This document shows, one piece after another, positions 9,881-60,836 of a DNA stretch of 64,000 nt (positions within the stretch are counted from its first letter, which is position 1; each line of letters starts with the position of its first letter). The notes beneath the pieces are model-generated. The model was not told the DNA's origin. It was given only the letters and a program-made list of their open reading frames with translations, and ran no database searches. The position numbers were made by a program, and so were the translations under genes. The stretch is taken from contig OZ242182.1 in NCBI GenBank assembly GCA_965205835.1, positions 1,935,246-1,999,245 of the forward strand, read 5' to 3'. This DNA comes from Nitrospinales bacterium (GTDB taxonomy: Bacteria; Nitrospinota; Nitrospinia; Nitrospinales; VA-1).

Positions 9881-9917
9881 TTAGAACATTTGCGTCTAAA
9901 AAATATAGCGTTGCTCT

Positions 9918-10415: not shown

Positions 10416-10446
10416 GCACTAAAAGCACACCAACATAGTTAAAAAT

Positions 10447-12192: not shown

Positions 12193-12280
12193 AATATTGA
12201 ATGGATATTTTGGATATCCATAGATTATACTATACTTGTGAACAGACCCAATTCAATCTTGAGACATCACAAGAACGATC

Positions 12281-12727
12281 ATGAGCGAAGCTGAATCTAA
12301 CCCCGCTGAAGAGAGCATCAAGCACTCCATTCGCAAGAATGGGTTTCCGGAGAAGATTGTCCGCCTGCCTTTCAAGCCGGTTTATGACGCCTGTAAAAAA
12401 CACGGGACCTCGTTGTCCGATGTTTTGGACAAGCTTCAGGAAGAACAGATTTTTGGCAAGATCACTGGCAACCATCTTGAGTTTTGCTCACGGGAGAAAA
12501 TTGATTTCAAAGTGCCGGACGATAATGCTCCGGCCTCCGACGAGTTTTCATGGCTCAAGGGTGCCGCCAATCTGAAAGGGTTTCAGGAAGCCGCCAAGAA
12601 TGCCATGGGAGAAATGACGGCGGAAAAATTAGCCGAGGTCCGCAAGATGGCCGAAAACATGAGCGATGAGGAAAAAATGAATATGCTGAAAATGTTCACC
12701 CAGCGCTTTGATCCCGGGAAAAAATAG
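12281..12727 (+). CDS. hypothetical protein
   Basis: 148-aa ORF divergent from nadE. No motif recognised. The coding call rests on length and compatibility with its neighbours only. Confidence 0.45.
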   Translation: MSEAESNPAEESIKHSIRKNGFPEKIVRLPFKPVYDACKKHGTSLSDVLDKLQEEQIFGKITGNHLEFCSREKIDFKVPDDNAPASDEFSWLKGAANLKGFQEAAKNAMGEMTAEKLAEVRKMAENMSDEEKMNMLKMFTQRFDPGKK

Positions 12728-12748
12728 CCACAGGATATAAATTACACT

Positions 12749-18030: not shown

Positions 18031-18174
18031 TAATGCGGTGGAGAACCTCCACTATCAATAAATCCGGCTTTTTTCTGCGCTCAACGGGGTCAGATAGTTT
18101 AACAATCTACTGCCCAATGGCCCCACGCCGAGTGGGCGGAGGTGCTCTGCCAATCTTTAAATATTTGGAAAGTT

Positions 18175-24004: not shown

Positions 24005-24445
24005 AAAAAACCTCCCCCCTGATAAGGAGACCTTTGAATAACCCATGAATACCCCTGGGGCACGAAGGCTAAGGAGAAATATCACGTCTTCGTCGCCTTC
24101 GGATCCTCAAGGATGACAAACCAGCGGTTCCTGTTATCCTGGGCAATCGTTTCTTGTCATTCTGAGCGATAGCGAAGAATCTCGCTCCGGCGGTTCCTGT
24201 TATTTGCATAACCCATGATTACCCCTTCGGGGCACGAAGGCTTAAGGAGAAATATCACGTCTTCGTCGCCTTCGGATCCTCAAGGATGACAAATCAGCGT
24301 TTCCTATCATTCCAAGCAATTGAGAATGACAAACAAGCGTTTCTTGTCATTCCAAGCAATCGTCTCTTGTCATTCTGAGCGATAGCGAAGAATCTCGCTT
24401 TTCTGTTTTTTTCGACTTACGCAAAGCTCTCCCTGATAAGAAGAG
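24005..24445 (+). repeat. composite dispersed intergenic repeat array (copy B)
   Basis: Two ~83-nt units (24038-24120 and 24208-24293) and two CTTGTCATTCTGAGCGATAGCGAAGAATCTCGC units (24153-24185 and 24366-24398). About 75 nt at 24353-24427 are near identical to 27776-27850. Confidence 0.85.
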
Positions 24446-34435: not shown

Positions 34436-35404
34436 CTACTCAAGATGCTTGTCAGGAATCAGGTAATTTTTGACGTAATCTGAAATCCCTTCCTCTAAAG
34501 AGGTGATCGTTTCCGCGTATCCTACTGAGCGAATTTTCTCCATTTCAGCACAGGTGTGATACTGATATTGATTTCGGATGGATTCTGGCATCTCTATATA
34601 TTTAATATTCACTTTTTTATTCATCGCCTGGAAAACTGCGGAAGCCAGGTCATTCCAGTTTCTCGCCCTGCCCGACGCGACATTAAAGATTCCCCCAATT
34701 TCCTTTTGCTCCAGAAAAAACAGGGTCATCGCCACCGCGTCGCGCACATATAAAAAATCTCTTTCCTGCCCTCCATCGCCATATTGAGGCTTGCGAGATT
34801 TAAAAAGATTCAGAGCACCCACATCGCGCGCCTGTAAAAATCCCTTGCGGACCATGCTCTGCATTTCTCCTTTATGGTATTCATTCGGACCAAATACGTT
34901 AAAATATTTCAGCCCCACGATGGTCTTCAGCACTCCCACCTCTTTGGCCCACAGGTCAAACCATTGTTTGCTGGCCCCATAAAGATTGAGAGGAGCCAAC
35001 GTTTCCAGCAGGGATTCGTCATCAGAATACCCGTTTTCTCCCGCCCCATAAGTTGCGGCACTTGAAGCATAAATAAAACGCACATCCTTTTTCAGGCAGA
35101 ATTGAGCAAGGGATCGCGTGTACTCAAAATTATTTTCCCGCAGATAGGCTTCATGGGTCTCCGTCGTGGATGAGCAAGCTCCCATATGCAAAATCGCTGA
35201 ACACGCTGGAAGATTTAGCCCCACGACCTCCCGCAAAAATTCATCCTTACCCATCCATCGCGAATAGGTGAGAGCATCGAGGTTCTTCTGTTTTTCAGGG
35301 TGGTCTATATCATCCACCACCCAGATATCCTCAACCTCTTTCTGATTAAGCCCGTGCACCAGAGCACTGCCGATGAATCCTGCTCCTCCCGTAACGACGA
35401 TCAT
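34436..35404 (-). CDS. hldD: ADP-L-glycero-D-manno-heptose 6-epimerase
   Basis: 322-aa ORF starting MIVVTGGAGFIGSALV, SDR fold, convergent with gmhA-hldE. Confidence 0.9.
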   Translation of the reverse strand: MIVVTGGAGFIGSALVHGLNQKEVEDIWVVDDIDHPEKQKNLDALTYSRWMGKDEFLREVVGLNLPACSAILHMGACSSTTETHEAYLRENNFEYTRSLAQFCLKKDVRFIYASSAATYGAGENGYSDDESLLETLAPLNLYGASKQWFDLWAKEVGVLKTIVGLKYFNVFGPNEYHKGEMQSMVRKGFLQARDVGALNLFKSRKPQYGDGGQERDFLYVRDAVAMTLFFLEQKEIGGIFNVASGRARNWNDLASAVFQAMNKKVNIKYIEMPESIRNQYQYHTCAEMEKIRSVGYAETITSLEEGISDYVKNYLIPDKHLE

Positions 35405-35637
35405 TTCTTTTCCACCTCTGATTCATCAATTCGATGAACCCCTATTGTTAAATAGAGCTTTTGCATAACCCATCATTACGACCACCCAGAATAACAAAAC
35501 GAACTCCAGTTGCCATCGTGACAAACCAGAGCAATCGGAGGTGCTGGCGTTACGAATAATGAAATATTGTCAAAGTCTGGATCGCCGCTCTCCCCCGGGT
35601 CGCTCGCGATGACGCGCGGTGAGACGGCTTTTCTATT

Positions 35638-38156
35638 TTATACCTTCTCTTCCAACGACCCTGGAATTTTCCGAAAGCTGGCAACAAGTCCATCAAAAGA
35701 CTTCGGTTTATATTTCCTGAAACCCTCCTCGTCCACATATACGAAGTCGTATATTACGCCTGTCCGCACCTTATTAACGTCTTCGCACCACTGCTTAAGC
35801 CGTTCCATCTTGGGCGGCAAATTCCAACTCTAAATGACTATCACCAACAATTTTGTTAAAAATACTTTTTTGGGGAACAATGTAATCCTGTTCCTTGACG
35901 ACAAAGGGTCGGGTTTTTCTCAACTTAATGGTGTCTCGAATTTCAGCACCGCCCCTATCCTGAACCATCAAGTCGTTGATCTGCCTTTTGAAAGTTTCTA
36001 TCAAGGTTTTAGTAGCCTGCAACTCAGACAAGTTTCGCAGGGTGTTGAGATTTTCAAGATCAACCGGCTTTTCAAATAATTCATCATGGATAAACGATTT
36101 TACTTTCCCATACAAAACATCATAGCCACTGACCAGCCTCAACTCTTTCATAATACCTTGGGTGAAATACCCCACAACCGAATGGTAATCCGCAACCTCT
36201 CCAGAATCCAGCAGGGTGGTATGGCTGATTTTACCTGTAGTAATGTCCCGGAATACTATTTCACGTTGCTCTTCCGCACTGAACGTTTTGTAGCCAACCT
36301 TTTCATGACCAAAATTCCCAATATCAAGGCCATCCAGGTTTTTATAATCTCGATAAATCCTTGGGCTTAGAACAGGAATTTCAATGGCAAGTTTTTCCAT
36401 ATCCTTGCTTGTGTTTTCATTATCTACTTCAATAATAATCGGCGTTTTGGGTTTAGTTCCTCCGCCCATTGGCTCGCGCTCAAGTTCAACACCTTCAGAC
36501 TGAATGGATTCCACAAAATCCATAAACGCGTCAGTCCCCACCACGCTGACATATTCCTCTACATTGTTACCGGGATACATTTTCCTAAGACCCCGGCCCA
36601 AAGTTTGCTCCGGCAAAATATTGCTTTGAGCAACATAAGCACGCAGTCCTACAATAGTGGTAACATTCTTCACATCCCAACCTTCTTTGAGCATTAATAC
36701 TGAGACGATGGCTTTGTAAGGGTTGTCCCAGATATCAATCTCATTAGCTTGTTTGCGTAGCTTTTCCAACTCATCCTTATTTTTTCCGGTCGTCGCTTCG
36801 CTGATTTCACCGTTGTTTTTAGTGTGAATCACCAGCACGGCATCTTTTAAATCAGGACAGGTTGCCTCAAGATATTCAGCCACATCGTCACAGTTCTTTG
36901 TGTCGTCCGTCATGACAAAGAGAATAGCTTTCTTATCCAGCTTTTCATGTTCCACATAGGCTTTGCGCCATTCCTCAACACCCAAGTTCAGGTAGTCCGC
37001 ATATTTCTCCGTATATCCGGAGCTTTGCCGCTCGGAAAGCCTGGCGCGGCTAGCAGCGTCTGGCAAAACCGGATGCTTGACAACGTTCTGAGAAATGGCT
37101 TCTACCAGCGGATAATCCGAAACCGTCTGGACAAAGATCGCACCGTTGTTGTGCCTAGGTGTTGCCGTTACATCCACCTGTAAAGATAGAAACCTGTCTT
37201 TGTGTTTCAAACGATTATGAATATCCTCAATCGACTTGAACCACGCCATGCGACTGTCATGGATATGATGCGCTTCATCATTGAGTATAACCAAGCTCAT
37301 CAATATCGCGAACAATATCTCCCAGATCGACCTTGGAGTCCGTAGTCGCTCCCGTGGGACGCTTGCCCAGAAAGTAGTCCGCTGTGTCGTCATCATCGAA
37401 AGACGGCTCAACATCATTGCCGGAATAAATCCGTTGGATATTGGTCAGGAAAATATTACCGGTCTTTCGGGCAACCGCTACATCATCCTGAATATGCAGA
37501 GTCAGTTGAAAATCATCACGCCAGTTACGGCCTTCAAAACCGTTATCCGGCAATACCGGGTCGTCAAAGAAAATACGCAATCCGCCAAAATCCTTACGAA
37601 TCCGGTCCAGGACGATGATATTAGGAGCAATCACCAGGAAATTACGCGCCAGTTCAGAACCTTCCTCATAGAGCTTATGGAAATAACACCATGCCAGGAT
37701 GAGGCTCAAGACCTTGGTCTTGCCGGAGCCGGTTGCCATCTTGAGAACAAGCCGGAGCCAGTCCTCATCAAACATACCGGAAGATATGGCACCAGAGCTA
37801 TCAAAACGTATAAGGTCGTATTTATCCTTGGCCTTGGCAACATCGTAAAGATAGATGACCGTTTCCACCGCTTCACGCTGGGCGAAATAATATTGAAAGC
37901 CTGCCATCGTGCCGTCTGACTTTGGCAACAAGTGCTCCGCCTTAAACCACCACTCCAAAAGAGTAATGCTGGTAGCCGTTGCCCCTTCATAGCCACTTTC
38001 CCGCCAATCCATTACCTTTTTACGCAGTTCATTTACAAGAGGTGGTAATAACTTCTCATAGCTCGATTTCCGCAAAACCTCATCGGCAGGAAACCACCGA
38101 GTTTTCGGGTCAAGCATAACGTGGGGAGAATCAGGAAAGTCAGGATGCAGGGCCAT
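35638..38156 (-). pseudogene. res: type III restriction Res-like helicase subunit, disrupted (locus 1)
   Basis: Three consecutive ORF pieces. Piece 1 is 37278..38156 (Walker A MATGSGKT). Piece 2 is 35795..37417 (DEAH box LNDEAHHIHD). Piece 3 is 35638..35820 (C-terminal tail ...KMERLKQWCEDVN...). The pieces are joined by a 1-nt frameshift near 37291-37292 and a second frame change near 35800-35820. Confidence 0.7.
38015..38156. repeat. 142-bp direct repeat, copy A (functional 5' end of res)
   Basis: Aligns without gaps to 39046-39187 at an offset of 1031 nt, with 4 mismatches, all transitions. Confidence 0.95.
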
Positions 38157-38165
38157 TGCGAAATA

Positions 38166-38585
38166 CTATTTAGGCAGGACGGTGGCAACCAGTATGCCAG
38201 TGAATTCAATCAAGTCGTCAGCATGTTTTTTAATCACCATCTCTACTTGTTTGCAATCAATATCCCGATACTGGTGAGTGACGATATTTCTAAATCCCAC
38301 CATGCCTATTAACTTTTTTTCCAGCTCGGCGTCTATGATGTTCGCTTGCCGGAGCAGGGTAAAACTCTCGGCACTTGTGGGCGGCAATCCTAATTTTTTC
38401 AAGCGAATCACATGATTCGCCATGTCAATACACTGCTCACAGGCTCTTTGCAAATTAACGATAATCGCATCCTGCTTATAAAAATCATCGGCGAAGGTTT
38501 TTTGCGATGGCATGGTGTAATAATCCCGCGCTTGCTTTATACACCGTTCTACGCTGGCTTTTTTCTGTAAGAGAATGTCAGACAT
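38166..38585 (-). CDS. hepT: HepT (DUF86, HEPN) toxin
   Basis: 139-aa ORF with the Rx4HxY motif in FRNIVTHQY. It overlaps the upstream MNT gene by 8 nt. Confidence 0.88.
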   Translation of the reverse strand: MSDILLQKKASVERCIKQARDYYTMPSQKTFADDFYKQDAIIVNLQRACEQCIDMANHVIRLKKLGLPPTSAESFTLLRQANIIDAELEKKLIGMVGFRNIVTHQYRDIDCKQVEMVIKKHADDLIEFTGILVATVLPK

Positions 38586-39027
38586 CGTAAAATCTACCGT
38601 CTCTCAAACCGCTTTCAACGATTTCCCTGCGCTCATCGTTCAGTTTTTGATAAAAGGACAGTATCAACATTTCAAACTCATCAGCTGCGTACTTATCGGC
38701 ACAGTAAATACGCCGGTCGGCGGCGATAACTTCCTTACATAGAAGCACCGAAACCGTACGCAGTTCAATCAAATCGGCATATTCTACCTTTGCCGCCGCC
38801 GCGACCTCGTCCGAGAGGCGTGACCACGTCAGGCGGTCAAGAGAGTGCACCGTTGCGGGCGGGAGTAGTACGGCGATGTCCAGGTCGCTGTCCTGACGCT
38901 GACCTTCCGTTCCCCAAGTGCCGTAGAGATAGATGGCCTGGGTATCCGGGTAGGCAGCAAGGATGGGTTGGGCAAAATTAAGTTGAGCCGCCCCATCCAT
39001 TATCTGTCGGCTCGTTTGCTTAAGCAT
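38578..39027 (-). CDS. mntA: MNT-type nucleotidyltransferase antitoxin
   Basis: GTWGTEGQRQDSDLDIAV matches the GSx10DxD-type NTase motif. The ATG at 39027 (MLKQTS...), which has an upstream GGAAAGGGG, is preferred. The ORF-track start at 39063 lies inside the duplicated res fragment. Confidence 0.85.
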   Translation of the reverse strand: MLKQTSRQIMDGAAQLNFAQPILAAYPDTQAIYLYGTWGTEGQRQDSDLDIAVLLPPATVHSLDRLTWSRLSDEVAAAAKVEYADLIELRTVSVLLCKEVIAADRRIYCADKYAADEFEMLILSFYQKLNDERREIVESGLRDGRFYDV

Positions 39028-39045
39028 CGGACTGATTACCCCTTT

Positions 39046-39187
39046 CCTTTTTACGCAGTTCATTTACAAGAGGTGGTAATAACTTCTCATAGCTCGATTT
39101 CCGCAAAACCTCATCGGCAGGAAACCATCGAATTTTCGGGTCAAGCATAACGTGGGGAGAATCAGGAAAGTCAGAATGTAGGGCCAT
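39046..39187. repeat. 142-bp direct repeat, copy B (orphan duplicate of the res 5' end)
   Basis: About 97% identical to 38015-38156. It retains the res ATG (39187-39185) but would encode only about 53 aa before a stop. Confidence 0.95.
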
Positions 39188-39737
39188 AAGCTAACCTAAT
39201 AGTTTTTTTGTACTGAAAACTCTCACCCTTTAGCTGCGACATTCTTTCAGGGGTGTCGTTACAACTTGCATTAGCGGGTTGTTTAGGATTTTGTTTGTTT
39301 ATATTAATCCACCTTATGCTGACAAAATGTGTCTTTTTGATGGCCTTTTGCAGGAAGCGAGGGCGACTAAAAAATTGTTGGCCTATGGCAACACAGTAGT
39401 CTATCACACATCGTGCACCTCGCAGTTGTTTTTTAGCTTTATCGCCACCGCGCTTGGATTTCTTTAACTCGATAAAAATTATTTCCTTTTCATTCACAAC
39501 CACATAGTCCGCACGTTTACATATTCCCTCCTTGTTTCCGCAATTAAGAATCTTCTCAGGCGATGGGAAAAGATCCGCTTTTAATATAAGGGTATTGTCA
39601 GGCAACCCTTTTAGGTCAACAACATACGATGATCCACTTTCTTGTTCTTTGAGTTTTGCTTGTCCGTTGTGTACCGGGACCAGTGCGTCCCCATTCAATA
39701 GTTGTTTCAACAATGTAAAGTCACTTATTATCATCAT
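39171..39737 (-). CDS. small hypothetical protein with PD-(D/E)xK-like motif
   Basis: The ORF track gives 39171..39767. The ATG at 39737 or 39734 is preferred and overlaps the upstream ATPase stop. It contains CKRADYVVVNEKEIIFIELKKSK, a D...E-x-K arrangement like the restriction-endonuclease fold. This is a motif-level inference only. Confidence 0.55.
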   Translation of the reverse strand: MMIISDFTLLKQLLNGDALVPVHNGQAKLKEQESGSSYVVDLKGLPDNTLILKADLFPSPEKILNCGNKEGICKRADYVVVNEKEIIFIELKKSKRGGDKAKKQLRGARCVIDYCVAIGQQFFSRPRFLQKAIKKTHFVSIRWININKQNPKQPANASCNDTPERMSQLKGESFQYKKTIRLAYGPTF

Positions 39738-41120
39738 CACCCCACAAAATGGCATCCTGAATTTCATTCATCTCATTGATCGTCTCATCAAAGCTGCGTG
39801 CCTCAATCCCAAGCTCTGGATCAATTTCCGCAAGCACAAGCGTTTCGCATCGGCTTCTTCTTGTCTGGCCTGGCTGCTTAATTAAAGCCTTTTCTGCAAT
39901 ATAAACCCTGATTTTTTCACAATCCAACAGTTCCTCCGTCCGATAGCCTTCCTTCTCGGCGATCTGCTTCAGGTAGGGTCTGTCCTGATTCAGCATAATC
40001 AGGGTATTGAGTTCCTTAACGATGTAGTCGCTGTGGGTGGTGATAAAAATCTTGATGCCCAGATTCACACCAAGCGTGCGAAAAGCCGCGCAATGAAACG
40101 CTGATTCTTCGGGTGCAGATTCAATTCCGGTTCATCCACTATCAGCATGTCGCCGTACTCGGCGACATGGCGTAAATAAAAGCCTATGTCAAGCAAAGAC
40201 CGCACCGCGCTGGAACTTTCGTCCATCGCCAGCTTGACGTACTTCTTTGAGGGTTTGAAATAAATCGTGTCGTTGCTTCCGGCGATGTATTCACCGCCAA
40301 CAATATCGGCAAACTCATTCAGGATTTCCGGGTATTTCTTGCGAATAAAACTATCTTCCTTGGCAATGTCCTCAAGCTGACGGATAAAGTTCACGTTAGC
40401 TTTGACCGGCCAGGCATAGTCCTTATAAGATTTGAATAACAAATCTAATGGCTCTATGTTTTGGTCAGGCCGGCTCATTTCTTCCAGCAAACGGTTGCGG
40501 GAAAAATTCAGTTCTTTACGAAAAATCACCGCGCCGGTGCGTTCTGCACTGGCAATGAAGGGGTTTGGGAAAAGTCGACCGAAGATAACTTCAATAACAG
40601 CTCTTGAAACACTTTCCTTGATCACACGAGAAGGCAAGATGTTTTCTTTCCCCTTATCTACCAGCAATGAGACGACCATATCCGTTTCTTCCTTTGATTT
40701 GGTCAGTGACAGTTCAGCTTTTCCGAGTCTGATTTTATTTTCAAAAGCCAAACCTATTATCGTTTCTTCTGTCATTGTCAAATCCACTTGAAACCGGGAA
40801 CCTTTGAAACGATCAGCTTTAGAGGCAAAGACAGTATCCAGCCTTTCGCTGTATTCCTGACAACCACGCTCAAGGATGCTGCTTGCCTGCTCCACATAGT
40901 ACGCAAGATCAATCCGTATGATGCCATCTTTCAACAGGTCGCTAATCTGCTGGTCTATGTCCCTAACTTTCAGCATCCTTTTCCAAGATTGTAGGAAGCC
41001 AAACAGTGCGTAAGTCGCATAAGTTTTTCCGCTATTGTTGTCACCGCAAATGATTGTCAAGTCGCCCAGTTCAAATTCCGCCTGCTTCAGAACGCCAAGA
41101 TTTTCTACCTTTATTTTCAC
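39721..41120 (-). pseudogene. ABC-type (AAA_15/AAA_21-like) ATPase, split by a frameshift (locus 1)
   Basis: 40065..41120 carries Walker A CGDNNSGKTY, ASAERTG and Walker B MLIVDEPELNLHP. 39721..40068 continues with ...NLGIKIFITTHSDYIV (His-loop) in another frame. The junction lies in TTGGTGTGAAT at about 40062-40072. The GTG start overlaps the mod stop (GTGA). Confidence 0.65.
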
Positions 41121-43399
41121 ACCCGCACCTCCACTATCTTCATTGTATCATTTCCAAAAATATCTACCACTTTCACCGCGACCTTCCGCCGTCCTGGCAC
41201 ACACTCATGAAACACGCTTCGCGTTTCCAGTGACCGGTCTTTTTTCGTGCGGAAGGACTGCCATTCGTTTTCAAAGACATAATCACCGGTCCAGACTTCT
41301 TCGGTCTCCCCGCTTTCCTCGTTTTGGACGCGGACAATCTCCCGCTTGGATTCAAAGTCAAAATCCACCGACCAGTAATCAATCCAATCGGTCCATTCTT
41401 TCGTCAATACCTCACGCGTAACGATCCCGTTCTTATCCTTACTGATCTTGATGACCTGGCCCTTGTCCACAACCACTTTAGCTTTACTTTTCTTCAGGCT
41501 TTCATCGACCCCCTCGGCGTCCTGGGAATAAAAAACGGAGAAATCGGTCAGTTCAATGGAAATCCACGCAAGTCCCCCCGGTTGAGCCTTTTGTCGCAAA
41601 CTATAACCCCCCTTGCCCCCCTTATCAGGGGGGAATTGGGTGGAAAGTCCCCCTGACAAGGGGGATTTAGGGGGTTGGTATTGGATATGCGGCTTGATCT
41701 CAATGAACGATACATCGTGGAAGACCACTTGATTCTTCTCCACCGCCCGCTTGTCGAAAACATCACGGGGAATGTATTTCATCGCCAAGTCAATACCCTT
41801 ACTCTTCGCTTCTTCCTGAATATTGGGGAACAGACCCATCTCGAATTCAAAGCCGAGAATATCTACTTTGGTGATGTGTTTTTGGCGGCACTCCAAGATG
41901 ACCTCCTCCACAAACAAACGAGTAACCGGCAGATTGACCGGCCCCACCGCTACCAGCCGTCCGGCCTTTTTGCCCTGAAAGGTATTGAACTGGCTCACCC
42001 CTTCAGCACGGTAGGCGTGCAGAATGAGGTTTGTAAAATCTTTTTCCCTTGTTTCCAGTTGCTTTTGTTTCTCAGCTTCGCGCAGGTTGGGATTCACGCC
42101 GATATGGTGCTGACGTTCATACTTACCGAGATTAAGGATTTCAAAAGCCCGCCAGCTTTTATCCTCTTTCTTGAGTTGACGCTGTACGCCGATCATACGC
42201 TTTCGGGTTGTGTGGATAGCGAATTTCCCGAGGTCGGAGCCGATCCATTTCCGGCCCAGTTTTTCGGCTACGGCGGCAGTGGTGCCGGAACCGCAAAAGA
42301 AATCGGCGACTAGATCGTTTTCGTTAGAGGAAGCTTTGATAATACGTTCTAACAGGGCTTCGGGTTTTTAGGTGGGATAGTCTATTCGTTCTGCTGAAGT
42401 TCGACCAACCATGTCTATGGACCAAACATCACGCGCATTTACAAGCGTGTACCATCCTGTTTGATCTTCGAACTCTTCAACACCTTTGAAGCGATATGGT
42501 TTGAAGCCACGGTTATAAGATTTTTCTTTTGGTACATTGAAAATGGACGCTCCATTTTTAGAATAGAACCAAATTGTGTCATGTTTTCGACCATATCGTC
42601 CTGTAGTTGCACCACCAGATTTGTACGACCAGATTACTTCATTTATAAAATTCTTCTTCCCAAAAATTTCATCTAGTACAAGCCGCAGATAACTATTCAC
42701 CCGCCAATCACAATGAACGTAAATACTGCCGTCATCGGCGAGTAAATCCCGCATCAGGGAAAGCCGTTCATAGATCATGGCAATAAAGGAATCCGCGCCC
42801 TTGCCCCAAGTATCACGGTAGGCAATTTCTTCCAGGATGCCGGGCTTTTTGGTGAAGGTCTCAACCCCCCCCCTCAATCCCCCCTTATCAGGGGGGAGGG
42901 ATGAAGGGATCTCGATATCCATACTGAAATCCGCTCCCACATCAAACGGCGGGTCGATATAGATCAACTTGATTCCGCCCTGCGCCTCAATCTCTTCCCG
43001 CAACGGCCCGTTTTTCAGGGAAGATAAAATCAGTTTGTTATCGCCCCAGATCAGCTTGTTGTTCCAGCCCGTAATCTGCCTGCCGGTCTGCTGGTCAAAC
43101 ATCTCTGTTTGCAGTTTGACAATATCTTCCGCGCGCGGCTCATCCACCTGCTCGATCACCTGAAAAGGCAGGACCACATTATCCACTTCGCTTGTTTTGC
43201 CGTTCCATACCAACTCCACTTCCCGCTTATCCTCAAATAGCAGGAAGCGATATTTTTCCGGCAAATGTTTCCCCGCTTCCAGAAGCTTGATAATGTCGCG
43301 GATTTCATTATCAGCCAGCTTCAGCGGCCCCTCGGTTTTAGATGGCTTTTTAGTGTTTGTCATTCCCGCGCGCTTGGAGGTGTTGGAACAAAAACCCAC
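41117..43399 (-). pseudogene. mod: type III-like N6/N4 DNA methyltransferase (Mod), interrupted by an in-frame TAA (locus 1)
   Basis: 42368..43399 carries motif IV IYIDPPFDVG. After the TAA at 42370-42368 the same frame continues [43 protein letters not shown] (motif I) and runs into ORF 41117..42196, ending ...[22 protein letters not shown]. The probable start is M13 (43363). Confidence 0.75.
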
Positions 43400-43466
43400 T
43401 GTCAGATATTTAGTCGTATATTTCGACTGGTGGATGTGCCAATATAATACAGAAAATTATTTCAAT

Positions 43467-43709
43467 ACGGATTTTTTTATGGTTTGCCAATATTCACCTA
43501 TCGAACCTAATCAAAGGCCGGGTTGCTGGAGAAATACAACCAACTATTTCTGGCCCCACGCCGAGTGAGCGGAGTGCCTCCGCCAGCAAATTAAGCAAGA
43601 CTTTTTCAGCCGAGACAAGGTTTCATTTCGCCTGATAAAGCCATTGCCAGTTGGCCCCACGCCGAGTGGGCGGGGTTCAACCCAACTGACCGGCCTTGTT
43701 CCTCAATAA
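43467..43709. repeat. ~243-bp direct repeat, left copy
   Basis: Aligns to 45261-45505 with about 16 mismatches and one 2-nt indel (about 93% identity). It contains two copies of the TGGCCCCACGCCGAGTGGG motif. Confidence 0.93.
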
Positions 43710-43865
43710 AATGACGAGTTATGCAAAGCTCTCCTTTAAAAGAGGGAGTAAAGCCTCAGGCCCCCTTGCGGGAAGTTTCTCATTTGTGTTTATCTGTGTT
43801 CATCGGTGGTAAAAGACGTGTCGGCTTGATTTTGTTCCAGTCCATGTTTGAGAAAAGAGGTGCCC

Positions 43866-44387
43866 TTAATGTCGGCTTACCCTGGAGAACTCCGTGATCG
43901 CGTCGGCCACCGTGATCATTAAAGTCACAGGGTCTAAAGGAGAAACTCGAAAACCACACCGTTGATAAAAGGCTTTTGCCTCATCATCCAGGGCATGGAC
44001 CAGGATAGCTCTTATTCCGGCAATTTCCGCGGCTTGAACAATTCTTGATATAGCGTCCCTTAAAAGGCCGCGCCCTATTCCGCCTCTTTGATATTTTTGA
44101 TCGACCGCCAAACGCCCCATAATCATAACCGGGATGGGGTCGGGCATATTGCGTTTGATTTTTCCAGAGGCTTTTATTGACTCTATTGAACCAACCGCCA
44201 AAGCATAAAATCCAACAACCTGTTTTCTGACGCAGACAACATAGGTTCGGGACGCGCCTGTTTCTTCATTGCGCAAGGCGCGTTTTTGAAGCCACTCATC
44301 AAGAACCGACTTACCGGAATCAAAAGTTTTAAAGTTGTGGCGGGGTTTTAGCTTTTCAGGAGGGGTTATTTCTTTTTTTGAAACCAT
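43866..44387 (-). CDS. GNAT-family acetyltransferase toxin (TacT-like)
   Basis: 173-aa ORF with the acetyl-CoA site QRGGIGRGLLRDA, immediately downstream of a DUF1778-type gene. Confidence 0.85.
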   Translation of the reverse strand: MVSKKEITPPEKLKPRHNFKTFDSGKSVLDEWLQKRALRNEETGASRTYVVCVRKQVVGFYALAVGSIESIKASGKIKRNMPDPIPVMIMGRLAVDQKYQRGGIGRGLLRDAISRIVQAAEIAGIRAILVHALDDEAKAFYQRCGFRVSPLDPVTLMITVADAITEFSRVSRH

Positions 44388-44399
44388 TGATGAGAAGGC

Positions 44400-44696
44400 T
44401 CAACTTTTCCAGGGCGGTGGTGTGTTGAGCGCACGGTTTAAAAGAGGATTGTCTTTTGGGGATTGATCCAAGACTTTTAAAAAGCGGTCAAACTTTTTTT
44501 GATCGAGAAGAAAGTGCCGGTTATCCAATAAAATATTGTTGGCCTCTTTACAGGCGGCCTCCAGCATGAACTCGGACCGTTTTTTACTCGTTATCTTCGC
44601 GGCCCGGTCTATCAGGTCCCGTTGTTGCTGAAGAGCACGAATATTAATAGAAGCACTGCGGCGAAACGTTTTCTCCGGGTCTTTGGTTGAGGGCAT
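44400..44696 (-). CDS. DUF1778-family (TacA-like, RHH) antitoxin
   Basis: 98-aa ORF (...INIRALQQQRDLIDRAAKITSKKRSEFMLEAACKEA...) ending 12 nt upstream of the GNAT gene. Confidence 0.82.
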   Translation of the reverse strand: MPSTKDPEKTFRRSASINIRALQQQRDLIDRAAKITSKKRSEFMLEAACKEANNILLDNRHFLLDQKKFDRFLKVLDQSPKDNPLLNRALNTPPPWKS

Positions 44697-44765
44697 TTTT
44701 TAATCTCCTTTACCTGTACAACCAACATGCCATAAAGCATACACAATTGCAACACATTTTAGATT

Positions 44766-45260
44766 TTAAAGGGCCGGTTTTATTTCGTTCCAATCCAAAT
44801 TTGGAAAAAGAGGAGTCCAAGTTCTATTTTCATGAGGCTTCACCTGCTTCCTCATCTGGGCCAATCAGCTCTGGCCGGAGAGGTGGGTGGAAAAATAAGA
44901 AGAAAGTTCCATGTCGTTTTCTTTGAAAGCGGTTTTTCCCTTCGGCAAATCCTCGGGCTCCTCTTGCATCAGCTTTTCAAAAATTTGAATCATTCCATGC
45001 GGATCAATATTGACGGCAAGGATCAATTCCATGCCTTTCTGGTCGGCTTCTGCCTCCATTTCCTGGAAATCCGAGCGTTTCAAGTTCTCCCGCGAGAGCG
45101 GCCATCCCTTCCATGACAGCACTCACATCCCCAATGAAAAGACTCAACAGCATACTTTGGGCCATGTTGCGGATAATTCCCCGGGGGTAGAATGCTTGAA
45201 CAGGATACGCTGGATTTCATGGGCAATGACTCTGGCTAATTCCTCAGGAGACTCGGCCTG
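44766..45260 (-). pseudogene. M48-family zinc metallopeptidase remnant
   Basis: Pieces in three frames. Frame 1: ...ESPEELARVIAHEIQRILFKHS (HEXXH degraded to HEIQR). Frame 2: GIIRNMAQSMLLSLFIGDVSAVMEGMAAL. Frame 3: SRENLKRSDFQEMEAEADQKGMELILAVNIDPHGMIQIFEKL...STHLSGQS, then an in-frame TGA (44865-44867), then LAQMRKQ... to the TAA at 44766-44768. The N-terminus is cut off at the repeat boundary (45261). Confidence 0.65.
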
Positions 45261-45505
45261 ACGGATTTTTTTATGGTTTGCCAATATTCACGTTTCAAAC
45301 CTAATCAAAGGCCGGGTTGCTGGAGAGGTACAACCGGCTATTTCTAGCCCGACGCCGAGTGGGCGGAGTGCCTCCGCCAGCAAATTAGGCAAGACTTTTT
45401 TTCAGCCGAGACAAGTTTTTATTTTGCCTGATAAAGCCATTGCCAGCTGGCCCCACGCCGGGTGGGCGGGGTTCAACCCAACTGACCGGCCTTGTTCCTC
45501 AATAA
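45261..45505. repeat. ~243-bp direct repeat, right copy
   Basis: See 43467-43709. It ends 81 nt upstream of the apgM-like start. Confidence 0.93.
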
Positions 45506-55573: not shown

Positions 55574-57982
55574 GTGGCAAAGGCTAAAAAACCGATTGAA
55601 CAATACGAACACAAAGGTAAGAAGCGCAGGAACAACCCGCCTGTAGGTCTTGTCACTCCCACCAGCGACAAGGAATCCAAAAAGAAGAAATATGCCTACG
55701 ACCCGCACATTGAACCCAGTTTGCAGTGGGCAGGGAAATCTGAGCATACCAGCTTTGAAGTTCCCACTGTCTCCCTGCATGTCCATGAACGTATTGACCC
55801 GAAGACGATCATGGAGGCGGTTAAAAAACGCAATGGTAACGACCATAAGCAGGTAGGGCTTTTTGCATCGCCAGAAGAAAACCCGCCGTTGAGGGAGGCA
55901 GTGGATTTTTACTCGCACACTCACGGCTGGAGCAATCGGCTGGTAGCAGGCGATAGCCTGCTGGTCATGAACTCCCTGCTGGAAAAAGAAAGCATGGCGG
56001 GAAAGGTGCAAATGGTTTATATAGACCCACCCTACGGCATCAAATACGGCTCCAATTTCCAGCCTTTCGTCAACAAACGCGATGTCAAGGATGGCAAAGA
56101 TGAGGATTTAACCGCCGAGCCGGAAACGATCAAAGCCTTTCGCGACACCTGGGAGCTGGGCATTCACTCTTACCTGACCTATATGCGCGACCGCTTGCTA
56201 CTGGCACGAGAATTGTTGAGCGAGAGCGGTAGTGTGTTTGTGCAGATTTCGGATGAGAATGTGCATCATATTCGGGAGATTATGGATGAGGTTTTTGGGA
56301 CGGAAAATTTTATCAGAGCAATCTCATTTGTCAAAACAGGAAGCATGGTTTCAAACGTATTGGGGAGGACAAGCGATTATTTAATCTGGTACACAAGAGA
56401 TAAAAATAATACTCGATATAGACAACTATTCTTGGAAAAATTTCCCGATGATTTTTATAGCAATGTTGAACTATCTAATGGCACTATTCGAAAAATAACA
56501 AAGGCAGAGAAATTAGATATGTCTCTCCTACCCAGAGGGGCAAAGGTCTTTCAGCTTGTTAGCCTTGAAAGTGCTGGGCCTGCTAATCAAGATACGCCGT
56601 TAGAGTTTGAGGGTGAAATTTTTCGCCCAAATAGAAATAGGCACTGGTCCTTGGCTTTTCCGGACGGTATGGAGACACTGAAGCGAACAGGGAGAATGGT
56701 AAAAGATGGTGATAAACTACGCTGGAAATACTATATCGACGATTATCCGATCAAGGTACTATCGGAAATTTGGAATGACACAGCAGGCTTTAGCCCAGAT
56801 CAAAAATATGTTGTAGAAACACGCACAAAAGTCATCCAACGCTGTATGCTGATGACCACCGACCCTGGCGACCTGGTGTTTGACCCGACCTGCGGTAGCG
56901 GCACCACCGCCTTTGCCGCCGAGCAATGGGGGCGAAGGTGGATCACCTGTGATACCTCTCGGGTAGCATTAACCCTGGCCAAACAGCGGCTGACGACCGC
57001 AACCTTTGACTACTACAAACTCGCCCATCCTGATGAAGGTGTCGGCAGTGGTTTTGAATATAAAACCGTGCCCCACATTACCTTGAAATCTATTGCCAAC
57101 AAAGAACCGCTCGCTACTGAAACCCTTTACGATCAACCCTTCAGAGACAGCAAAAAGAAACGGGTGAGCGGTCCCTTCACCGTGGAAGCGGTACCCGCCC
57201 CGGCAGTGAAATCGCTGGATGATATGCTGCCAGATACCCCACCGCCTGCTGATGTCTCCATCGTCCGCTCGGGCGAAACTCTGCGCCAAAGTGAATGGCG
57301 CGATGAACTATTACAGGCCGGCGTGCGTGGCAAAAATGGCCAGATGATTTTGTTTTCTCGTGTTGAACCGCTTTCCGCAACCCGTTGGCTCCATGCCGAT
57401 GCCGAAACCGGACCCAACGATAAAGGTGGGGACACAGTTAAGGAAGAAGATGTGATTTATGGGAATCCTGAGCGGGTAGTCATTTCATTTGGCCCTGAAC
57501 ACGCCCCTCTGGAACAAAAACAGGTCGAACTGGCATGGCAGGAAGCACGGACTTTAATTCCCAAACCAGGTATCATCATCTTCGCGTCCTTCCAGTTTGA
57601 TCCGGAGGCGGCGAAAGATATTGATAAATTGACCATGGATAAAACTGGAATGACATTCCTTAAGGCGCAAATGAACACTGACCTTTTGACAGACGATTTA
57701 AAGAAGAAACGGGCAAGTAATCAATCCTTTTGGTTGATCGGGCAACCTGATATAGAACTCCGTGCCATAGACAAGGGAGAGCATAAAGGAAAACTAGAGG
57801 TGGAAGTGCATGGGTTTGATTATTACAACACCAGGACCGGAGCCATCGAGTCCGGCAACACCGCAAAGATCGCCCTTTGGATGCTGGATACCGATTATGA
57901 CGGGCGGAGCCTATATCCACGGCAGGTGTTTCTCCCGATGTCGGGGGGGGGGGCGGCTGGTCCCGATTGGCGAAAAACCTGA
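55574..57982 (+). CDS. mod: type III-like N6/N4 DNA methyltransferase (Mod), C-terminally truncated at a poly-G tract (locus 2)
   Basis: GTG start, with GGAGG whose 3' end lies 6 nt upstream of the GTG. Motif IV VYIDPPYGIKYG precedes motif I VFDPTCGSGTTAFAAEQWGRRWI (beta-class order). The ORF ends 26 nt after the G11 tract. The conserved tail ...GWSRLAKNLKAEIDEELIEAYRGTVSLPFETGKHKQVAVKIVDDRGIESLRILEVGE is encoded out of frame at 57955-58128. Confidence 0.85.
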   Translation: MAKAKKPIEQYEHKGKKRRNNPPVGLVTPTSDKESKKKKYAYDPHIEPSLQWAGKSEHTSFEVPTVSLHVHERIDPKTIMEAVKKRNGNDHKQVGLFASPEENPPLREAVDFYSHTHGWSNRLVAGDSLLVMNSLLEKESMAGKVQMVYIDPPYGIKYGSNFQPFVNKRDVKDGKDEDLTAEPETIKAFRDTWELGIHSYLTYMRDRLLLARELLSESGSVFVQISDENVHHIREIMDEVFGTENFIRAISFVKTGSMVSNVLGRTSDYLIWYTRDKNNTRYRQLFLEKFPDDFYSNVELSNGTIRKITKAEKLDMSLLPRGAKVFQLVSLESAGPANQDTPLEFEGEIFRPNRNRHWSLAFPDGMETLKRTGRMVKDGDKLRWKYYIDDYPIKVLSEIWNDTAGFSPDQKYVVETRTKVIQRCMLMTTDPGDLVFDPTCGSGTTAFAAEQWGRRWITCDTSRVALTLAKQRLTTATFDYYKLAHPDEGVGSGFEYKTVPHITLKSIANKEPLATETLYDQPFRDSKKKRVSGPFTVEAVPAPAVKSLDDMLPDTPPPADVSIVRSGETLRQSEWRDELLQAGVRGKNGQMILFSRVEPLSATRWLHADAETGPNDKGGDTVKEEDVIYGNPERVVISFGPEHAPLEQKQVELAWQEARTLIPKPGIIIFASFQFDPEAAKDIDKLTMDKTGMTFLKAQMNTDLLTDDLKKKRASNQSFWLIGQPDIELRAIDKGEHKGKLEVEVHGFDYYNTRTGAIESGNTAKIALWMLDTDYDGRSLYPRQVFLPMSGGGAAGPDWRKT
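57943..57953 (+). repeat. G11 homopolymer (candidate contingency/phase-variation tract) inside mod
   Basis: Counted directly: tc-GGGGGGGGGGG-cggctgg. G12 (or G9) joins the upstream frame to the 58-codon downstream frame ending at 58128. Confidence 0.9.
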
Positions 57983-58124
57983 AAGCCGAGATCGACGAGG
58001 AGTTGATAGAAGCCTATCGGGGAACTGTATCCTTGCCTTTTGAAACCGGCAAACACAAACAGGTAGCAGTTAAAATAGTGGACGACCGTGGAATTGAAAG
58101 TTTGCGGATTTTGGAGGTGGGTGA

Positions 58125-60821
58125 ATGAGCAGTCAAAATTCATACAAGGGCGCACGATTTTATAAGTGCGCTTTACAGGTTAACTCGTATCGCTATGCGG
58201 AATATCGAGGTAAGACACCACAGGATGAGAGCACTTACAATAACCAAATTCTGGAGCAGTGCAAAACAAATAATATCAAGGTGGTTGGGTTAGCTGATCA
58301 CGGTAAAGTAGAAGATTCGGAATCGTTGCGGAGTTTGTTGCGGGGAAGGGATATCACCGTATTTCCCGGATTTGAAATCGCAAGCTCTGAAAAGATTCAC
58401 ATGGTTTGTCTTTATCCTGAAGAAACAATAATATCAAAGCTCAATCAGTATCTTGGGCAGTTGATGGGAACTAACACCTCTGAGCTTAAGGAAGCATCCA
58501 CATATCCATCATCGCTAAGCTGCGAAGAAATTGCAAGTGCTGTTCTAAATAATCAAATAGGGTTTTGGTATGCAGCACATATGACAGGAACAAATGGTTT
58601 GCTCAGCTTAAGTCGCACGGGTGGTAATTATATTCACCTTTGGAGAAAAAAAGATTTAGTGGTTGCCGGACAAATCCCCGGGAAAACAGACGATTTAGAT
58701 GTCGAGCAAACCAAATTAAAGAGCTATAAAGATATTATTGAAAACAAAAACCCTGACTACAAGCGAGACAAACCCATTGCCATCATCAACGCTAAGGATA
58801 TAGAGCAACCTGAAACACTGGCGCATCCTTCCGCTTCTTGTTTGATTAAGATGACCGAACCCAACTTCGATGCATTCAAGCAGGCATTCATGGATTCGGA
58901 ATCTCGCATTCGCTTAAATCACCAAGCACCGGAACGTCAGTATTCATCTATCAAATCCATAAAGTGGCAAGGTGCTGGATTTTTTGAAGATAGTGATATC
59001 ATATTTTCTAAACATCTCAATACTATTATTGGTGGTCGTGGCACAGGTAAATCGACCATAATAGAAAGCATACGCTACGCTTTGGACTTGCCAACTCGCA
59101 AGGATAATAATGGTAATAAGTCGTTGGAGGTTTTTCGTAAAAACATACTCAATAATTCACAGGTTATTTTAGAAGTTTATTCAAAAACGCAGCAAGGGAA
59201 CTGCTATACAATCAGCAGGCGTTATGGCGAAGCACCGATAGTTAAAAATAATCAGGGAGAAGTTTCTCATTTAATACCAAGGGATATTCTGCCAGATATT
59301 GAATTGCTGGGACAAAACGAGATTTTAGAAATTGAAAAGGATGAAGATGCCAAACTGTCTCTTATTGACAACTTTCTGCCAAATAGCGATAGATTTAATA
59401 CTGACATGGCTGAAATTAAACGTAGGTTGGCAGATAACAGAAATAAGTTGATAAAAGCGAATGAGGAGCTTGAACGACTGGACGAGGCCATCAGCAAAGA
59501 AGACAAACTGAAGGAAAAAGTAACGCAATTTAAAAAGCTAGGCGTAGAGGATAAGTTAAAGAATGCTAAATTGATCGAAAAAGAAAAGATCATTCAAGCA
59601 AAAATTAAAGAACAGTTTGATGCGGTTGAAAAATGGACAAAGAGCTATCAATCAATATTTGACTTGACGTTTTTGCGAGAAACTGATCTTGCGGAGCTTC
59701 CCAATGAATCAAGCATGGTCGCAACGCGGAAAATTTTTGAGGATTTACAAAAAACACTCAGTGACCTCATTGAACAAGCTAATAAAGAATTACAAAACGC
59801 TAAGGAAAAGTATCAAGAAGCACAATCACCATGGCAAGAGAAAGCGGAAAAAATTCGTACTGATCTGAATGAAGCGATTACCCAACTGCCCGGGCAGGCA
59901 GGAAAATCTGGCAAAGAATTAGGAACGGAATATACAGACATCATTCAACAATTGACGCTAATAGAAAAACAAGGGCAGACACACAAGAATCAGAAGAAAA
60001 TAGTTGAAGCGATTGAACTTGAGCGAACAACTCTGCTGGAAGAATATCGAAATACTGCTTTCAATTATTTTAAAACTATGGATAAAAAGGTTAAAAAACT
60101 AAACGAAAGCGACCTAAAAGACAAAGTAAAAATTGAAGTGAATCGCTGTGGAAACGTGGATTCTCTAAAAGATTTTCTGCTTGATATTGAGGGCATTGGC
60201 GAGTCTAAAATACAATGGTTAAATGAGGAGAAAATAGAATTGGATTTGGTGGAATGGTCACAATGGATAAAAGAGAAAAATTCTGTTGCTTTTATGGAAA
60301 AATACCAAGCATACGGATTAACCAGAGGCGTTGCAGACAGGCTGATTAGCGTGAACATATCTAAACGGTTGGAATTGGAAGAGATTGAGCTGAAAGATCA
60401 AGTTGGTATTAAACTGAACACGGCTCACGAGAATAGTGCCCCCTACTATATACCGCTTGATAAGTTATCAACAGGTCAAAAATGTACGGCTATCTTAAAT
60501 TTGCTGCTACTGAACCCTAATGATCCTTTGATTATTGACCAGCCAGAAGATAACTTAGATAACGCTTTTATCGCCGAACGTATTGTGCGGGATTTAAGAA
60601 AGCTCAAAATCAATCGGCAATTTTTGTTTGCCTCCCACAACGCCAACATACCGGTATTTGGCGATGCCGAGTTAATTGCAGTGTTAGATAGCAAAGAGGG
60701 AAAAGGGCAGATTAAAAATATCGGCTCTATTGATAAATTAGAAGTGAGCAAGGATGCAGCGGAAATACTGGAAGGCGGAGAAGCGGCTTTTAATATGCGA
60801 AAAAACAAGTATGGTTTTTAA
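58125..60821 (+). CDS. PHP-like N-terminal domain fused to an SMC/Rad50/RecN-type ABC ATPase
   Basis: 898-aa ORF. N-terminus GARFYKCALQVNSYRY...GLADHG...FPGFEIASSEKIHMVCLY (PHP-like). Walker A IIGGRGTGKSTII. A long K/E-rich coiled-coil-like middle region. LSTGQKCTAILNLLL, Walker B PLIIDQPEDNLD and FASHNANI. Confidence 0.8.
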   Translation: MSSQNSYKGARFYKCALQVNSYRYAEYRGKTPQDESTYNNQILEQCKTNNIKVVGLADHGKVEDSESLRSLLRGRDITVFPGFEIASSEKIHMVCLYPEETIISKLNQYLGQLMGTNTSELKEASTYPSSLSCEEIASAVLNNQIGFWYAAHMTGTNGLLSLSRTGGNYIHLWRKKDLVVAGQIPGKTDDLDVEQTKLKSYKDIIENKNPDYKRDKPIAIINAKDIEQPETLAHPSASCLIKMTEPNFDAFKQAFMDSESRIRLNHQAPERQYSSIKSIKWQGAGFFEDSDIIFSKHLNTIIGGRGTGKSTIIESIRYALDLPTRKDNNGNKSLEVFRKNILNNSQVILEVYSKTQQGNCYTISRRYGEAPIVKNNQGEVSHLIPRDILPDIELLGQNEILEIEKDEDAKLSLIDNFLPNSDRFNTDMAEIKRRLADNRNKLIKANEELERLDEAISKEDKLKEKVTQFKKLGVEDKLKNAKLIEKEKIIQAKIKEQFDAVEKWTKSYQSIFDLTFLRETDLAELPNESSMVATRKIFEDLQKTLSDLIEQANKELQNAKEKYQEAQSPWQEKAEKIRTDLNEAITQLPGQAGKSGKELGTEYTDIIQQLTLIEKQGQTHKNQKKIVEAIELERTTLLEEYRNTAFNYFKTMDKKVKKLNESDLKDKVKIEVNRCGNVDSLKDFLLDIEGIGESKIQWLNEEKIELDLVEWSQWIKEKNSVAFMEKYQAYGLTRGVADRLISVNISKRLELEEIELKDQVGIKLNTAHENSAPYYIPLDKLSTGQKCTAILNLLLLNPNDPLIIDQPEDNLDNAFIAERIVRDLRKLKINRQFLFASHNANIPVFGDAELIAVLDSKEGKGQIKNIGSIDKLEVSKDAAEILEGGEAAFNMRKNKYGF

Positions 60822-60836
60822 GGATGTTAGTACGAG

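Follow-up and report, generated by a model that had tools for sequence, protein, structure and literature searches.

A probable docking site for defence modules in a pseudogenised type III restriction–modification operon

A 64,000-nucleotide stretch of a Nitrospinales genome (GenBank assembly GCA_965205835.1, contig OZ242182.1, positions 1,935,246 to 1,999,245; hereafter the window) carries, on its minus strand from 43363 to 35638, a single co-oriented chain of open reading frames (ORFs) comprising mod, an ABC ATPase, a small gene, a 5′ fragment of res, MNT, HepT, and res. We read this chain as a pseudogenised type III restriction–modification (RM) operon whose mod–res junction is where unrelated, co-transcribed defence modules dock, two of which are present here: PDC-M47, formed by the ATPase and the small gene, and the pair MNT-HepT. 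We assign this reading a probability of roughly 0.85. By itself, the window locus is a dead RM operon and therefore ordinary. Its interest lies in what it and its relatives suggest, which is that type III RM, too, hosts embedded defence modules, with more than half of the sampled operons of this lineage carrying cargo at one precise site.

Cargo exchange between sister loci

Housekeeping proteins of the window belong to clusters labelled Nitrospinaceae or Nitrospinota. A sister Nitrospinaceae genome (locus L164) has the same chromosomal neighbourhood, with TacA-GNAT upstream, rfaD and hldE downstream, and flanks that are 93–95% identical in nucleotides to those of the window. All genes of L164 are intact, and their order is mod (764 amino acids), Ppl (882 amino acids; PADLOC 1.3e-139), AlbA_2/HATPase_c_4 (420 amino acids), MNT, HepT, and res (900 amino acids). 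Of the window genes, mod, MNT, HepT, and res are their orthologues, at 85–92% nucleotide identity, and across the 3153 nucleotides (nt) of MNT-HepT-res the alignment has a single gap. The window ATPase and small gene are without counterpart in L164, where Ppl and AlbA_2 fill that slot. As judged from these alignments, PDC-M47 would have replaced Ppl-AlbA_2 in the window lineage, so that the two genomes together provide a dated cargo replacement, with the same locus and different cargo.

An intact mod-ATPase-small-res operon is found in an unrelated genome of high G+C content (L001), and its identity to the window varies sharply along the locus. It is 70–85% in mod and 96–100% from 41150 to 39230, which holds the ATPase and the small gene. 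Along res, it is about 77% over the first ~90 nt, 99–100% over nt 88–287 (where all but one base match), and about 65–80% over the remainder. The window mod is of the resident type, as compared with L164, until about the last 30 nt before its stop, and the left joint therefore lies therein. The L001 operon itself (6344–13246) has a G+C content of 40–51%, in flanks of 62–64%, and from this composition the whole operon looks recently acquired by the L001 genome.

The genes of the window locus are as follows.

41117–43363, minus strand: mod pseudogene, type III N6-adenine methyltransferase (Pfam N6_N4_Mtase 4e-18; PADLOC MTase_III 8e-55 and 3e-21)
39721–41120, minus strand: ABC ATPase pseudogene, PDC-M47A / PD-T4-4_A-like (PADLOC; Pfam AAA_15 and AAA_21)
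39171–39737, minus strand: PDC-M47B, small PD-(D/E)xK-motif protein of 188 amino acids (PADLOC PDC-M47B 3.6e-42)
39020–39187, minus strand: orphan res 5′ fragment, an ORF of 55 codons (148-nt repeat, 96% identity)
38578–39027, minus strand: MNT nucleotidyltransferase antitoxin, intact (Pfam Polbeta 1.9e-11)
38166–38585, minus strand: HepT RNase toxin, intact (Pfam HepT-like 5.9e-29)
35638–38156, minus strand: res pseudogene, superfamily 2 (SF2) helicase-nuclease, in three frames (Pfam ResIII; PADLOC REase_III)

A first-pass annotation of this DNA had described four minus-strand genes chained by overlaps, and each of its junctions is present. The mod stop overlaps the ATPase GTG as GTGA (41120–41117), the ATPase stop (39723–39721) falls within the small gene (ATG at 39737), and the small-gene stop (39173–39171) overlaps the ATG at 39187 of the res fragment by 17 nt. 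The proposed operon holds as a co-oriented, overlap-linked unit, but its gene content has to be enlarged, as the MNT-HepT pair (39027–38166) also lies between the res fragment and the real res. A scan of 35300–44900 for promoters and terminators gave the same counts as shuffled sequences, and an Rfam scan of 35000–45500 at E values up to 0.1 gave 0 matches.

The mod gene is split into two ORFs (43363–42371 and 42367–41117), and its alignment shows IDPPF (motif IV, DPPF/Y) and FFCGSGTT (motif I, FxGxG), with a central target-recognition domain that is present and short. The ATPase is likewise split (41120–40065 and 40068–39721). Although its frame is broken, the two halves together cover the full-length PDC-M47A profile, with PADLOC scores of 2.6e-155 (profile 1–350) and 1.1e-54 (profile 350–460), and the match to PD-T4-4_A is 3.9e-116. 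The cognate partner, PDC-M47B, is encoded directly downstream with its start overlapping the ATPase stop, and is 91% identical to P0001. Because its match to the PD-T4-4_B profile is merely 2e-5, we assign the pair to PDC-M47 rather than to PD-T4-4 proper. These Pfam and PADLOC matches, together with the small-protein motif described below, agree with the earlier description of an AAA_15/21-like ABC ATPase and a PD-(D/E)xK-like protein.

The orphan res fragment duplicates the real res start, as shown by a direct repeat of 148 nt (39040–39187 and 38009–38156) that is 96% identical. The orphan ORF consists of res nt 1–148 followed by eight unrelated codons, and its stop overlaps the MNT ATG (ATGCTTAA). 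The HepT start overlaps the MNT stop (ATGTCTGA), giving a gene overlap of 8 nt. HepT carries RNIVTHQY (Rx4HxY) and MNT shows DSDLD, as in a nucleotidyltransferase of the GSx(n)DxD pattern. The window MNT is 88% identical to that of L164 over 129 amino acids and HepT is 91% identical, and at the import junction MNT differs from the sister gene in having its first ~8 codons (L164 numbering) replaced. MNT-HepT lies directly upstream of res also in L102 and L110, as it does in L164. Because the sister already has MNT-HepT upstream of res without the duplicate, the 148-nt copy arrived with PDC-M47, and the orphan fragment is the scar of a cassette import. For the same reason, insertion of a Campbell-type MNT-HepT circle was rejected as the main cause of the duplication.

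A separate arrangement is seen in locus L086 (9330–10349), which has MNT and HepT genes closely similar to those of the window. Together with the orphan res 5′ ORF of 66 codons that follows them, these genes lie about 2 kb past the end of the complete res of this locus. The group could be left over from a second operon, or it could be a mobile MNT-HepT-res5′ unit.

The following history would account for the window locus. Its earlier state would have been mod-Ppl-AlbA_2-MNT-HepT-res, as in the sister. L001-like DNA that reached from the end of mod through PDC-M47 into the start of res may then have recombined into the resident locus, with its left joint at the very end of mod, displacing Ppl-AlbA_2 and leaving the incoming res 5′ piece (the 148-nt duplicate) upstream of MNT. 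This scar would have persisted as an ORF, with its stop overlapping the start of MNT. The real res and the orphan fragment share a mosaic that is resident-type in nt 1–88 and L001-type from nt 88, which a second patch could explain, as could gene conversion between the duplicated res 5′ ends; we infer this pathway, and it is not unique. A single double crossover was rejected, as it would have deleted MNT-HepT. Later, the operon would have been pseudogenised, with loss of the nuclease core and frame of res, a stop and two insertions in mod, and a frameshift in the ATPase, leaving only the addictive MNT-HepT pair intact.

The mod–res gap in relatives and the PDC-M47 pair

A search of metagenome contigs with the conserved Res N-terminus (MALHPDFP...) recovered 80 loci, 65 of which include the mod end as well as the res start. 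The two genes are adjacent in 27 of the 65, typically with the mod stop overlapping the res start (TAATG; …GGGAAGAAATAATGGC…). In the other 38, a gap of 142 nt to 5.7 kb is occupied by credible ORFs on the operon strand. As identified with Pfam and PADLOC, the cargo comprises PDC-S22 (KilA-N; 11 loci), PDC-S13 (Bro-N; 5 loci), MNT with HepT (2 loci), GIY-YIG, Schlafen/AlbA_2, ImmA/IrrE (RmrA-like) with DUF4411, HATPase with PIN, IetA with IetS (2e-145 and 2e-301), SIR2 with HerA (1.6e-112 and 1.9e-155), AAA_15 with DUF3800, PDC-M19A (DUF488), and PDDEXK_3. Locus L002 adds an NsnB/HEC-03-like ATPase and a PDC-M24B-like protein. The gap of this lineage could be mined for new defence genes.

The site of insertion is precise. 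Many cargo genes begin exactly where the res ATG would be and end in a new ...AAATAATGGC junction. Moreover, backbones that are 88–95% identical carry different cargo or none (L103/L106, L110/L129, L129/L157, L117/L129, L110/L144, and L144/L149). The cargo lies on the same strand inside one host system and is also found outside it, and is thus embedded in the sense of Payne et al. (10.1101/2024.01.29.577857).

Several loci retain pieces of the host genes between successive cargos. The order in L002 is mod, M47A, M47B, a 51-amino-acid ORF, an ABC ATPase, a 140-amino-acid gene, a 53-amino-acid ORF, a 164-amino-acid gene, DUF1828, and res. Both of the mini-ORFs consist of res nt 1–77 joined in frame to the last 48–75 nt of mod, and their stops overlap the start codon of the next gene (GTGA and ATGA). 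An independent joint of 51 nt of res and 66 nt of mod follows M47B in L020, from a Leptospira metagenome-assembled genome, and precedes a HATPase cargo, and L113 has a 22-codon res fragment between two cargo genes. Upstream of its intact mod, L011 (1–8184; Caldilineaceae) carries a mod remnant with 5′ and 3′ ends only, ImmA/IrrE with DUF4411, a mod 3′ fragment, and a Ppl-like gene of 884 amino acids, which suggests that cargos with mod 3′ tails also accumulate on the upstream side. The 55-codon ORF of the window belongs to this class of linker scars, whose recurrence suggests how cargos stack.

The PDC-M47 pair was surveyed in its own right at 80 ATPase loci from species-representative genomes, among them Cyanobacteria, Latescibacterota, Caldilineaceae, Gemmatimonadota, Thiomargarita, and cable bacteria. 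Members of the ATPase family are very numerous, with more than 4,700 matches among 8,000 candidates scored. The small gene directly follows the ATPase in 77 of the 80 loci. Same-lineage mod and res are found on both sides of the pair in only four (L011, L043, L053, and L070), about six further loci have mod or res remnants, and in about 70 of the 80 genomes the pair has neither gene nearby. Its most frequent neighbours are housekeeping genes, with Mfd in 16 loci and, in others, CNNM/CorC transporters, phycobilisome proteins, HEAT-repeat proteins, and pentapeptide-repeat proteins. In the remnant-flanked loci L018, L055, L057, and L072, PDC-M47 persists between the leftovers of mod or res. On this distribution, we consider the ATPase and small gene to be an autonomous two-gene module.

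The small protein has a motif, KRAD...IE-x-K, that is invariant or nearly so. Across 90 homologues, D77 and E90 never vary, and K92 is conserved in at least 90%. In a structural model built from the 90 sequences (predicted local distance difference test, pLDDT, 88.3), D77 and E90/K92 lie on consecutive strands (78–81 and 86–91) that precede a long helix, an arrangement that corresponds to the catalytic D...(D/E)-x-K motif in the alpha-beta-beta-beta-alpha-beta core of PD-(D/E)xK nucleases. An AlphaFold model from 5 sequences (pLDDT 46.8) was discarded. A sequence-profile search of the PDB with the small protein returned only chance matches to lactate dehydrogenase. Both WonAB and PD-T4-4 combine an ABC-ATPase sensor with a PD-(D/E)xK nuclease, and WonAB works by abortive infection (PMC12137116). 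By analogy, the PDC-M47 ATPase is probably a sensor that licenses a PD-(D/E)xK nuclease effector, leading to abortive infection.

A DUF4325 (STAS-like) gene lies between mod and the PDC-M47 ATPase in L053 (9649–10017) and at the equivalent position in L070. Its product could have an accessory or regulatory role alongside PDC-M47.

Lesions and rival explanations

Lesions were measured against the sister locus and five other intact homologues (for mod: L001, L002, L043, L053, and L070), none of which shares them. In mod, a CAA-to-TAA change at 42370–42368 replaces the Q of a conserved YPTQKP. The gene also contains two in-frame insertions, one of 13 amino acids (42907–42869) and one of about 30–36 amino acids (about 41665–41564), which both contain the palindromic element TCCCCCCTGATAAGGGGGG flanked by G/C-rich hairpins. 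These insertions are present neither in the sister genome nor in the five other mod homologues. In addition, the target-recognition region (about 42622–42419) is about 60–70 amino acids shorter than in the five intact homologues, and it cannot be aligned to the sister at the nucleotide level. A further partial copy of the palindromic element is intergenic, at 24013–24031.

The ATPase has a 2-nt insertion (TG) at about 40066, between Walker B and the H-loop, where the product changes from RLFARLV to NLGIKIFITTHS. The family consensus RLFARLVNLGI is continuous across this point, and the alignment with L001 has two gap columns. The small gene is also slightly damaged, given its frameshift. As recognized against L001, an extra A in an A7 run (39209–39203), six codons ahead of the normal stop, alters the C-terminus from KKLLG* to KKTIRLAYGPTF* and carries the ORF 17 nt into the res fragment. 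The first-pass annotation had taken this 17-nt overlap as ancestral, which it is not, because the extra A alone creates it; in six intact relatives, among them L001, L011, L043, L053, and L070, the small-gene stop lies 0–3 nt ahead of the res ATG.

Two lesions affect res. A 1-nt insertion at about 37295 lies directly ahead of LVILNDEAHH, which holds the DEAH motif, and a deletion of 185 nt, with its junction at about 35816/35815 and 5 nt of microhomology, takes out residues about 782–842. The lost segment includes YYPDF...VETKG, the PD-ExK catalytic core, which L164, L001, and L002 retain. The three remaining pieces correspond to residues 1–288, 288–781, and 843–893 of intact homologues. Thus, the helicase part of an intact Res is retained (ResIII match, GSGKT, and DEAHH) and the C-terminal PD-(D/E)xK nuclease is not. 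With the TAA in mod and the insertion and deletion in res, neither gene has the open frame of a working type III enzyme.

All three large genes are broken, and MNT and HepT alone appear intact. The first-pass annotation had proposed that the decay is biological, and we agree: mod and res of full length occupy the same locus in the sister, the flanking genes are clean, and we regard the decay as confirmed by these alignments and as specific to the window lineage. Phase variation was rejected as the cause of the lesions, as those in mod and res are without simple repeats. The mod lesion consists of a base substitution and insertions, and the sole homopolymer (G9, 42865–42873) sits in frame within an inserted element, so that mod lacks the frame-switching simple-sequence repeat of a phasevarion. 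Because loss of methylation under active restriction would be lethal, disablement of res probably preceded or accompanied that of mod; this order of lesions we infer.

The possibility that the locus is functional, with lesions that are sequencing or assembly errors of a long-read metagenome assembly, appears very unlikely. It is true that the source contig, a large one of 2.43 Mb, is apparently metagenome-assembled, that three lesions are indels of 1–2 nt (one in the A7 run), and that an exact look-up of the truncated 351-amino-acid ATPase product for independent assemblies with the same lesion found none on record, leaving this lesion without independent confirmation. However, the CAA-to-TAA change, the 185-nt microhomology deletion, the repeat-element insertions, and the short recognition domain are all atypical of consensus error. 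Furthermore, the TG and C insertions lie outside homopolymers, and the flanking housekeeping sequence, over 5.4 kb of alignment with the sister, has three gaps and intact ORFs. Still less probable, in our judgement, is that mod, the ATPase, the small nuclease, and res make up a single integrated machine of type III-like character, in which the ATPase and the nuclease are obligate subunits, with the window holding a decaying copy. This is close to the first-pass annotation, which had proposed a single ancestral, translationally coupled four-gene system. All of the genes are co-oriented, and the order mod-ATPase-small-res is indeed intact in L001, L043, L053, and L070, with tight or overlapping junctions. 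However, this is one order among many. The gap is empty in the 27 related pairs noted above, others fill it with roughly 20 other cargo types, and the sister slot holds Ppl-AlbA_2. PDC-M47 is usually solo, extra genes precede the ATPase in L053 and L070 (DUF4325) and in L011 (two genes), and identity to L001 is discordant between cargo (96–100%) and backbone (about 75%). Therefore, the single ancestral system is not supported, and a mod-X-Y-res cluster should not be annotated as a new multi-gene RM type.

A different proposal grants that PDC-M47 is cargo and makes it a PrrC-like guard, restrained by Mod/Res and firing on a phage anti-restriction protein, so that its embedding would be selected. 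PrrC in EcoprrI provides a precedent, and anti-restriction proteins act as the trigger of several ABC-ATPase systems (10.1101/2024.01.29.577857; PMC12707154). The cargo is also co-transcribed, with stop/start overlaps retained even by way of scar ORFs. In contrast, most PDC-M47 pairs are solo, and the pair outlives mod and res in the four remnant-flanked loci, such that we consider the guard model unlikely here. The locus is nonetheless relevant to the question of whether embedded ABC-ATPase/nuclease pairs guard the surrounding RM system. We are less doubtful, though still tentative, about a stronger form of the docking-site reading, in which, throughout this widespread type III RM lineage, the conserved mod end and res start would constitute an integron-like recombination cassette platform without an integrase. 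Cargos would insert exactly at the TAATG overlap, be swapped between diverged operons, and stack in tandem, with in-frame res5′-mod3′ mini-ORF linkers keeping the translational coupling, and the window would record one such import.

Several points weigh against the docking-site reading or narrow it. The swap polarity rests on one sister genome and the scar. The L001-type tract of the real res extends to nt 287, beyond the 148-nt duplicate, and the res 5′ mosaic needs more than one recombination or conversion step, for which a unique path was not reconstructed. The res 5′ end was not demonstrated to be an exceptionally conserved recombination handle: per 30 nt, its conservation is 0.61–0.79, the same as in the rest of the N-terminal region, and only the last ~60 nt of mod (0.72–0.82) stand out. 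As read from the assembly, the single-base indels could be assembly errors, that in the A7 run most of all. Foldseek searches of the PDB and BFVD with the small-protein model gave nothing significant (best E values 0.026 and 0.028, respectively; template-modelling scores at most 0.28), with lists dominated nonetheless by PD-(D/E)xK nucleases, namely Bax1, PfoI, Hjc, VRR-NUC, Can2/Card1, McrC, and the R2 endonuclease. Finally, a literature search for PDC-M47 found no paper that mentions the family and no experimental test.

Surroundings of the locus and comparison with known systems

The window contains a second type III operon with embedded cargo on its plus strand (55574–64000), comprising mod, a Ppl-like gene, AlbA_2, and a res that runs off the window. 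The Ppl-like PHP/ABC ATPase (58125–60821) has 898 amino acids (Ppl 1.4e-38), and AlbA_2 (60837–62036) has 399. Its mod frame shifts at a G11 run (57943–57953) that is a candidate phase-variation tract. The cargo is of the same type as that in the L164 slot and only 23–29% identical to it, and mod and res are of a different lineage. The parallel in layout that had been drawn between this operon and the window locus is sound, as both have the order mod-cargo-res. They are not two copies of one four-gene architecture, but rather two type III operons of different mod/res lineages with embedded cargo.

Directly upstream of the decayed mod, on the minus strand, lies a pair encoding a TacA (DUF1778) antitoxin and a GNAT acetyltransferase toxin (43866–44696), at the same position as in the sister. 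An insertion of ~270 nt relative to the sister (about 43550–43822) separates the GNAT toxin gene from the mod upstream region, of which the ~170 nt directly upstream of mod are conserved with the sister. The insertion contains two hairpin-like repeats of 25 nt (43551–43575 and 43652–43676). A 177-nt part of it recurs at 45329–45505 with 92.7% identity, and the core is also found at 18118–18152. From this recurrence it looks like a repeat family of the miniature inverted-repeat transposable element (MITE) or repetitive extragenic palindromic (REP) type.

The MNT-HepT pair resembles other type VII toxin–antitoxin systems of this name in that the antitoxin gene overlaps an Rx4HxY toxin gene and both are intact. 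It is unlike the usual pair in lying inside an RM operon, directly upstream of res, and in having an MNT N-terminus remodelled by the import junction. The host operon shares with classical type III RM (EcoP15I / EcoP1I, Mod2Res) the position of mod upstream of res, the DPPF and FxGxG motifs, a central variable region, and the SF2 motifs, and the Res of intact relatives has the C-terminal PD-ExK nuclease. In the window, by contrast, about 3 kb of cargo lies between mod and res, both of which are pseudogenes, and the nuclease core of Res is deleted.

PDC-M47 is similar to PD-T4-4 (Vassallo et al. 2022, PMC9519451) and WonAB (PMC12137116), in which an AAA_15/AAA_21 ATPase of ~465 amino acids is followed by a PD-(D/E)xK-motif protein of ~185 amino acids. 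Unlike in PD-T4-4, the nuclease partner in the window belongs to a different nuclease subfamily, and the ATPase is frameshifted. The operons as a whole recall integron arrays, with promoterless, co-oriented cargos stacked behind one promoter and short recurrent linkers. However, the linkers here are pieces of the host genes (res 5′ and mod 3′), and exchange apparently proceeds by homologous or illegitimate recombination. No integrase is among the annotated genes of the window locus, L164, and L002, and no attC-like site was identified, though no dedicated search was made.

Defence genes embedded in type I RM, BREX, DISARM, and Hma loci are already known. PrrC in the type IC EcoprrI locus is the classical case (PMC12707154). 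Additional genes close to type III mod/res have been mentioned in passing, among them UvrD-Cas4 and Schlafen-like ATPases (PMC5704561). A limited library yielded no description of the type III mod–res junction as a cargo site or of res5′/mod3′ linker ORFs, which is weak evidence, and the type III cargo hotspot appears not to have been described previously. We suggest that the locus is a tractable model for the assembly of defence islands.

The closest parallel is found in the embedded systems of Payne et al. (10.1101/2024.01.29.577857), whose “guilt by embedding” approach gave rise to the PDC candidate families and in which 96.7% of cargo is co-oriented with its host. As in those systems, unrelated defence genes are nested here in a host system in the same orientation, and the families common to both sets include PDC-M47, PDC-S22, PDC-S13, PDC-M19, PDC-M24, and HEC-03/NsnB-like ATPases. 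Unlike the hosts described there, the host here is a type III mod/res operon in which insertion takes place at one exact point, where mod stops and res starts. Beyond that work, these loci add direct evidence for a swap of cargo between sister genomes, along with the res5′/mod3′ linker scars.

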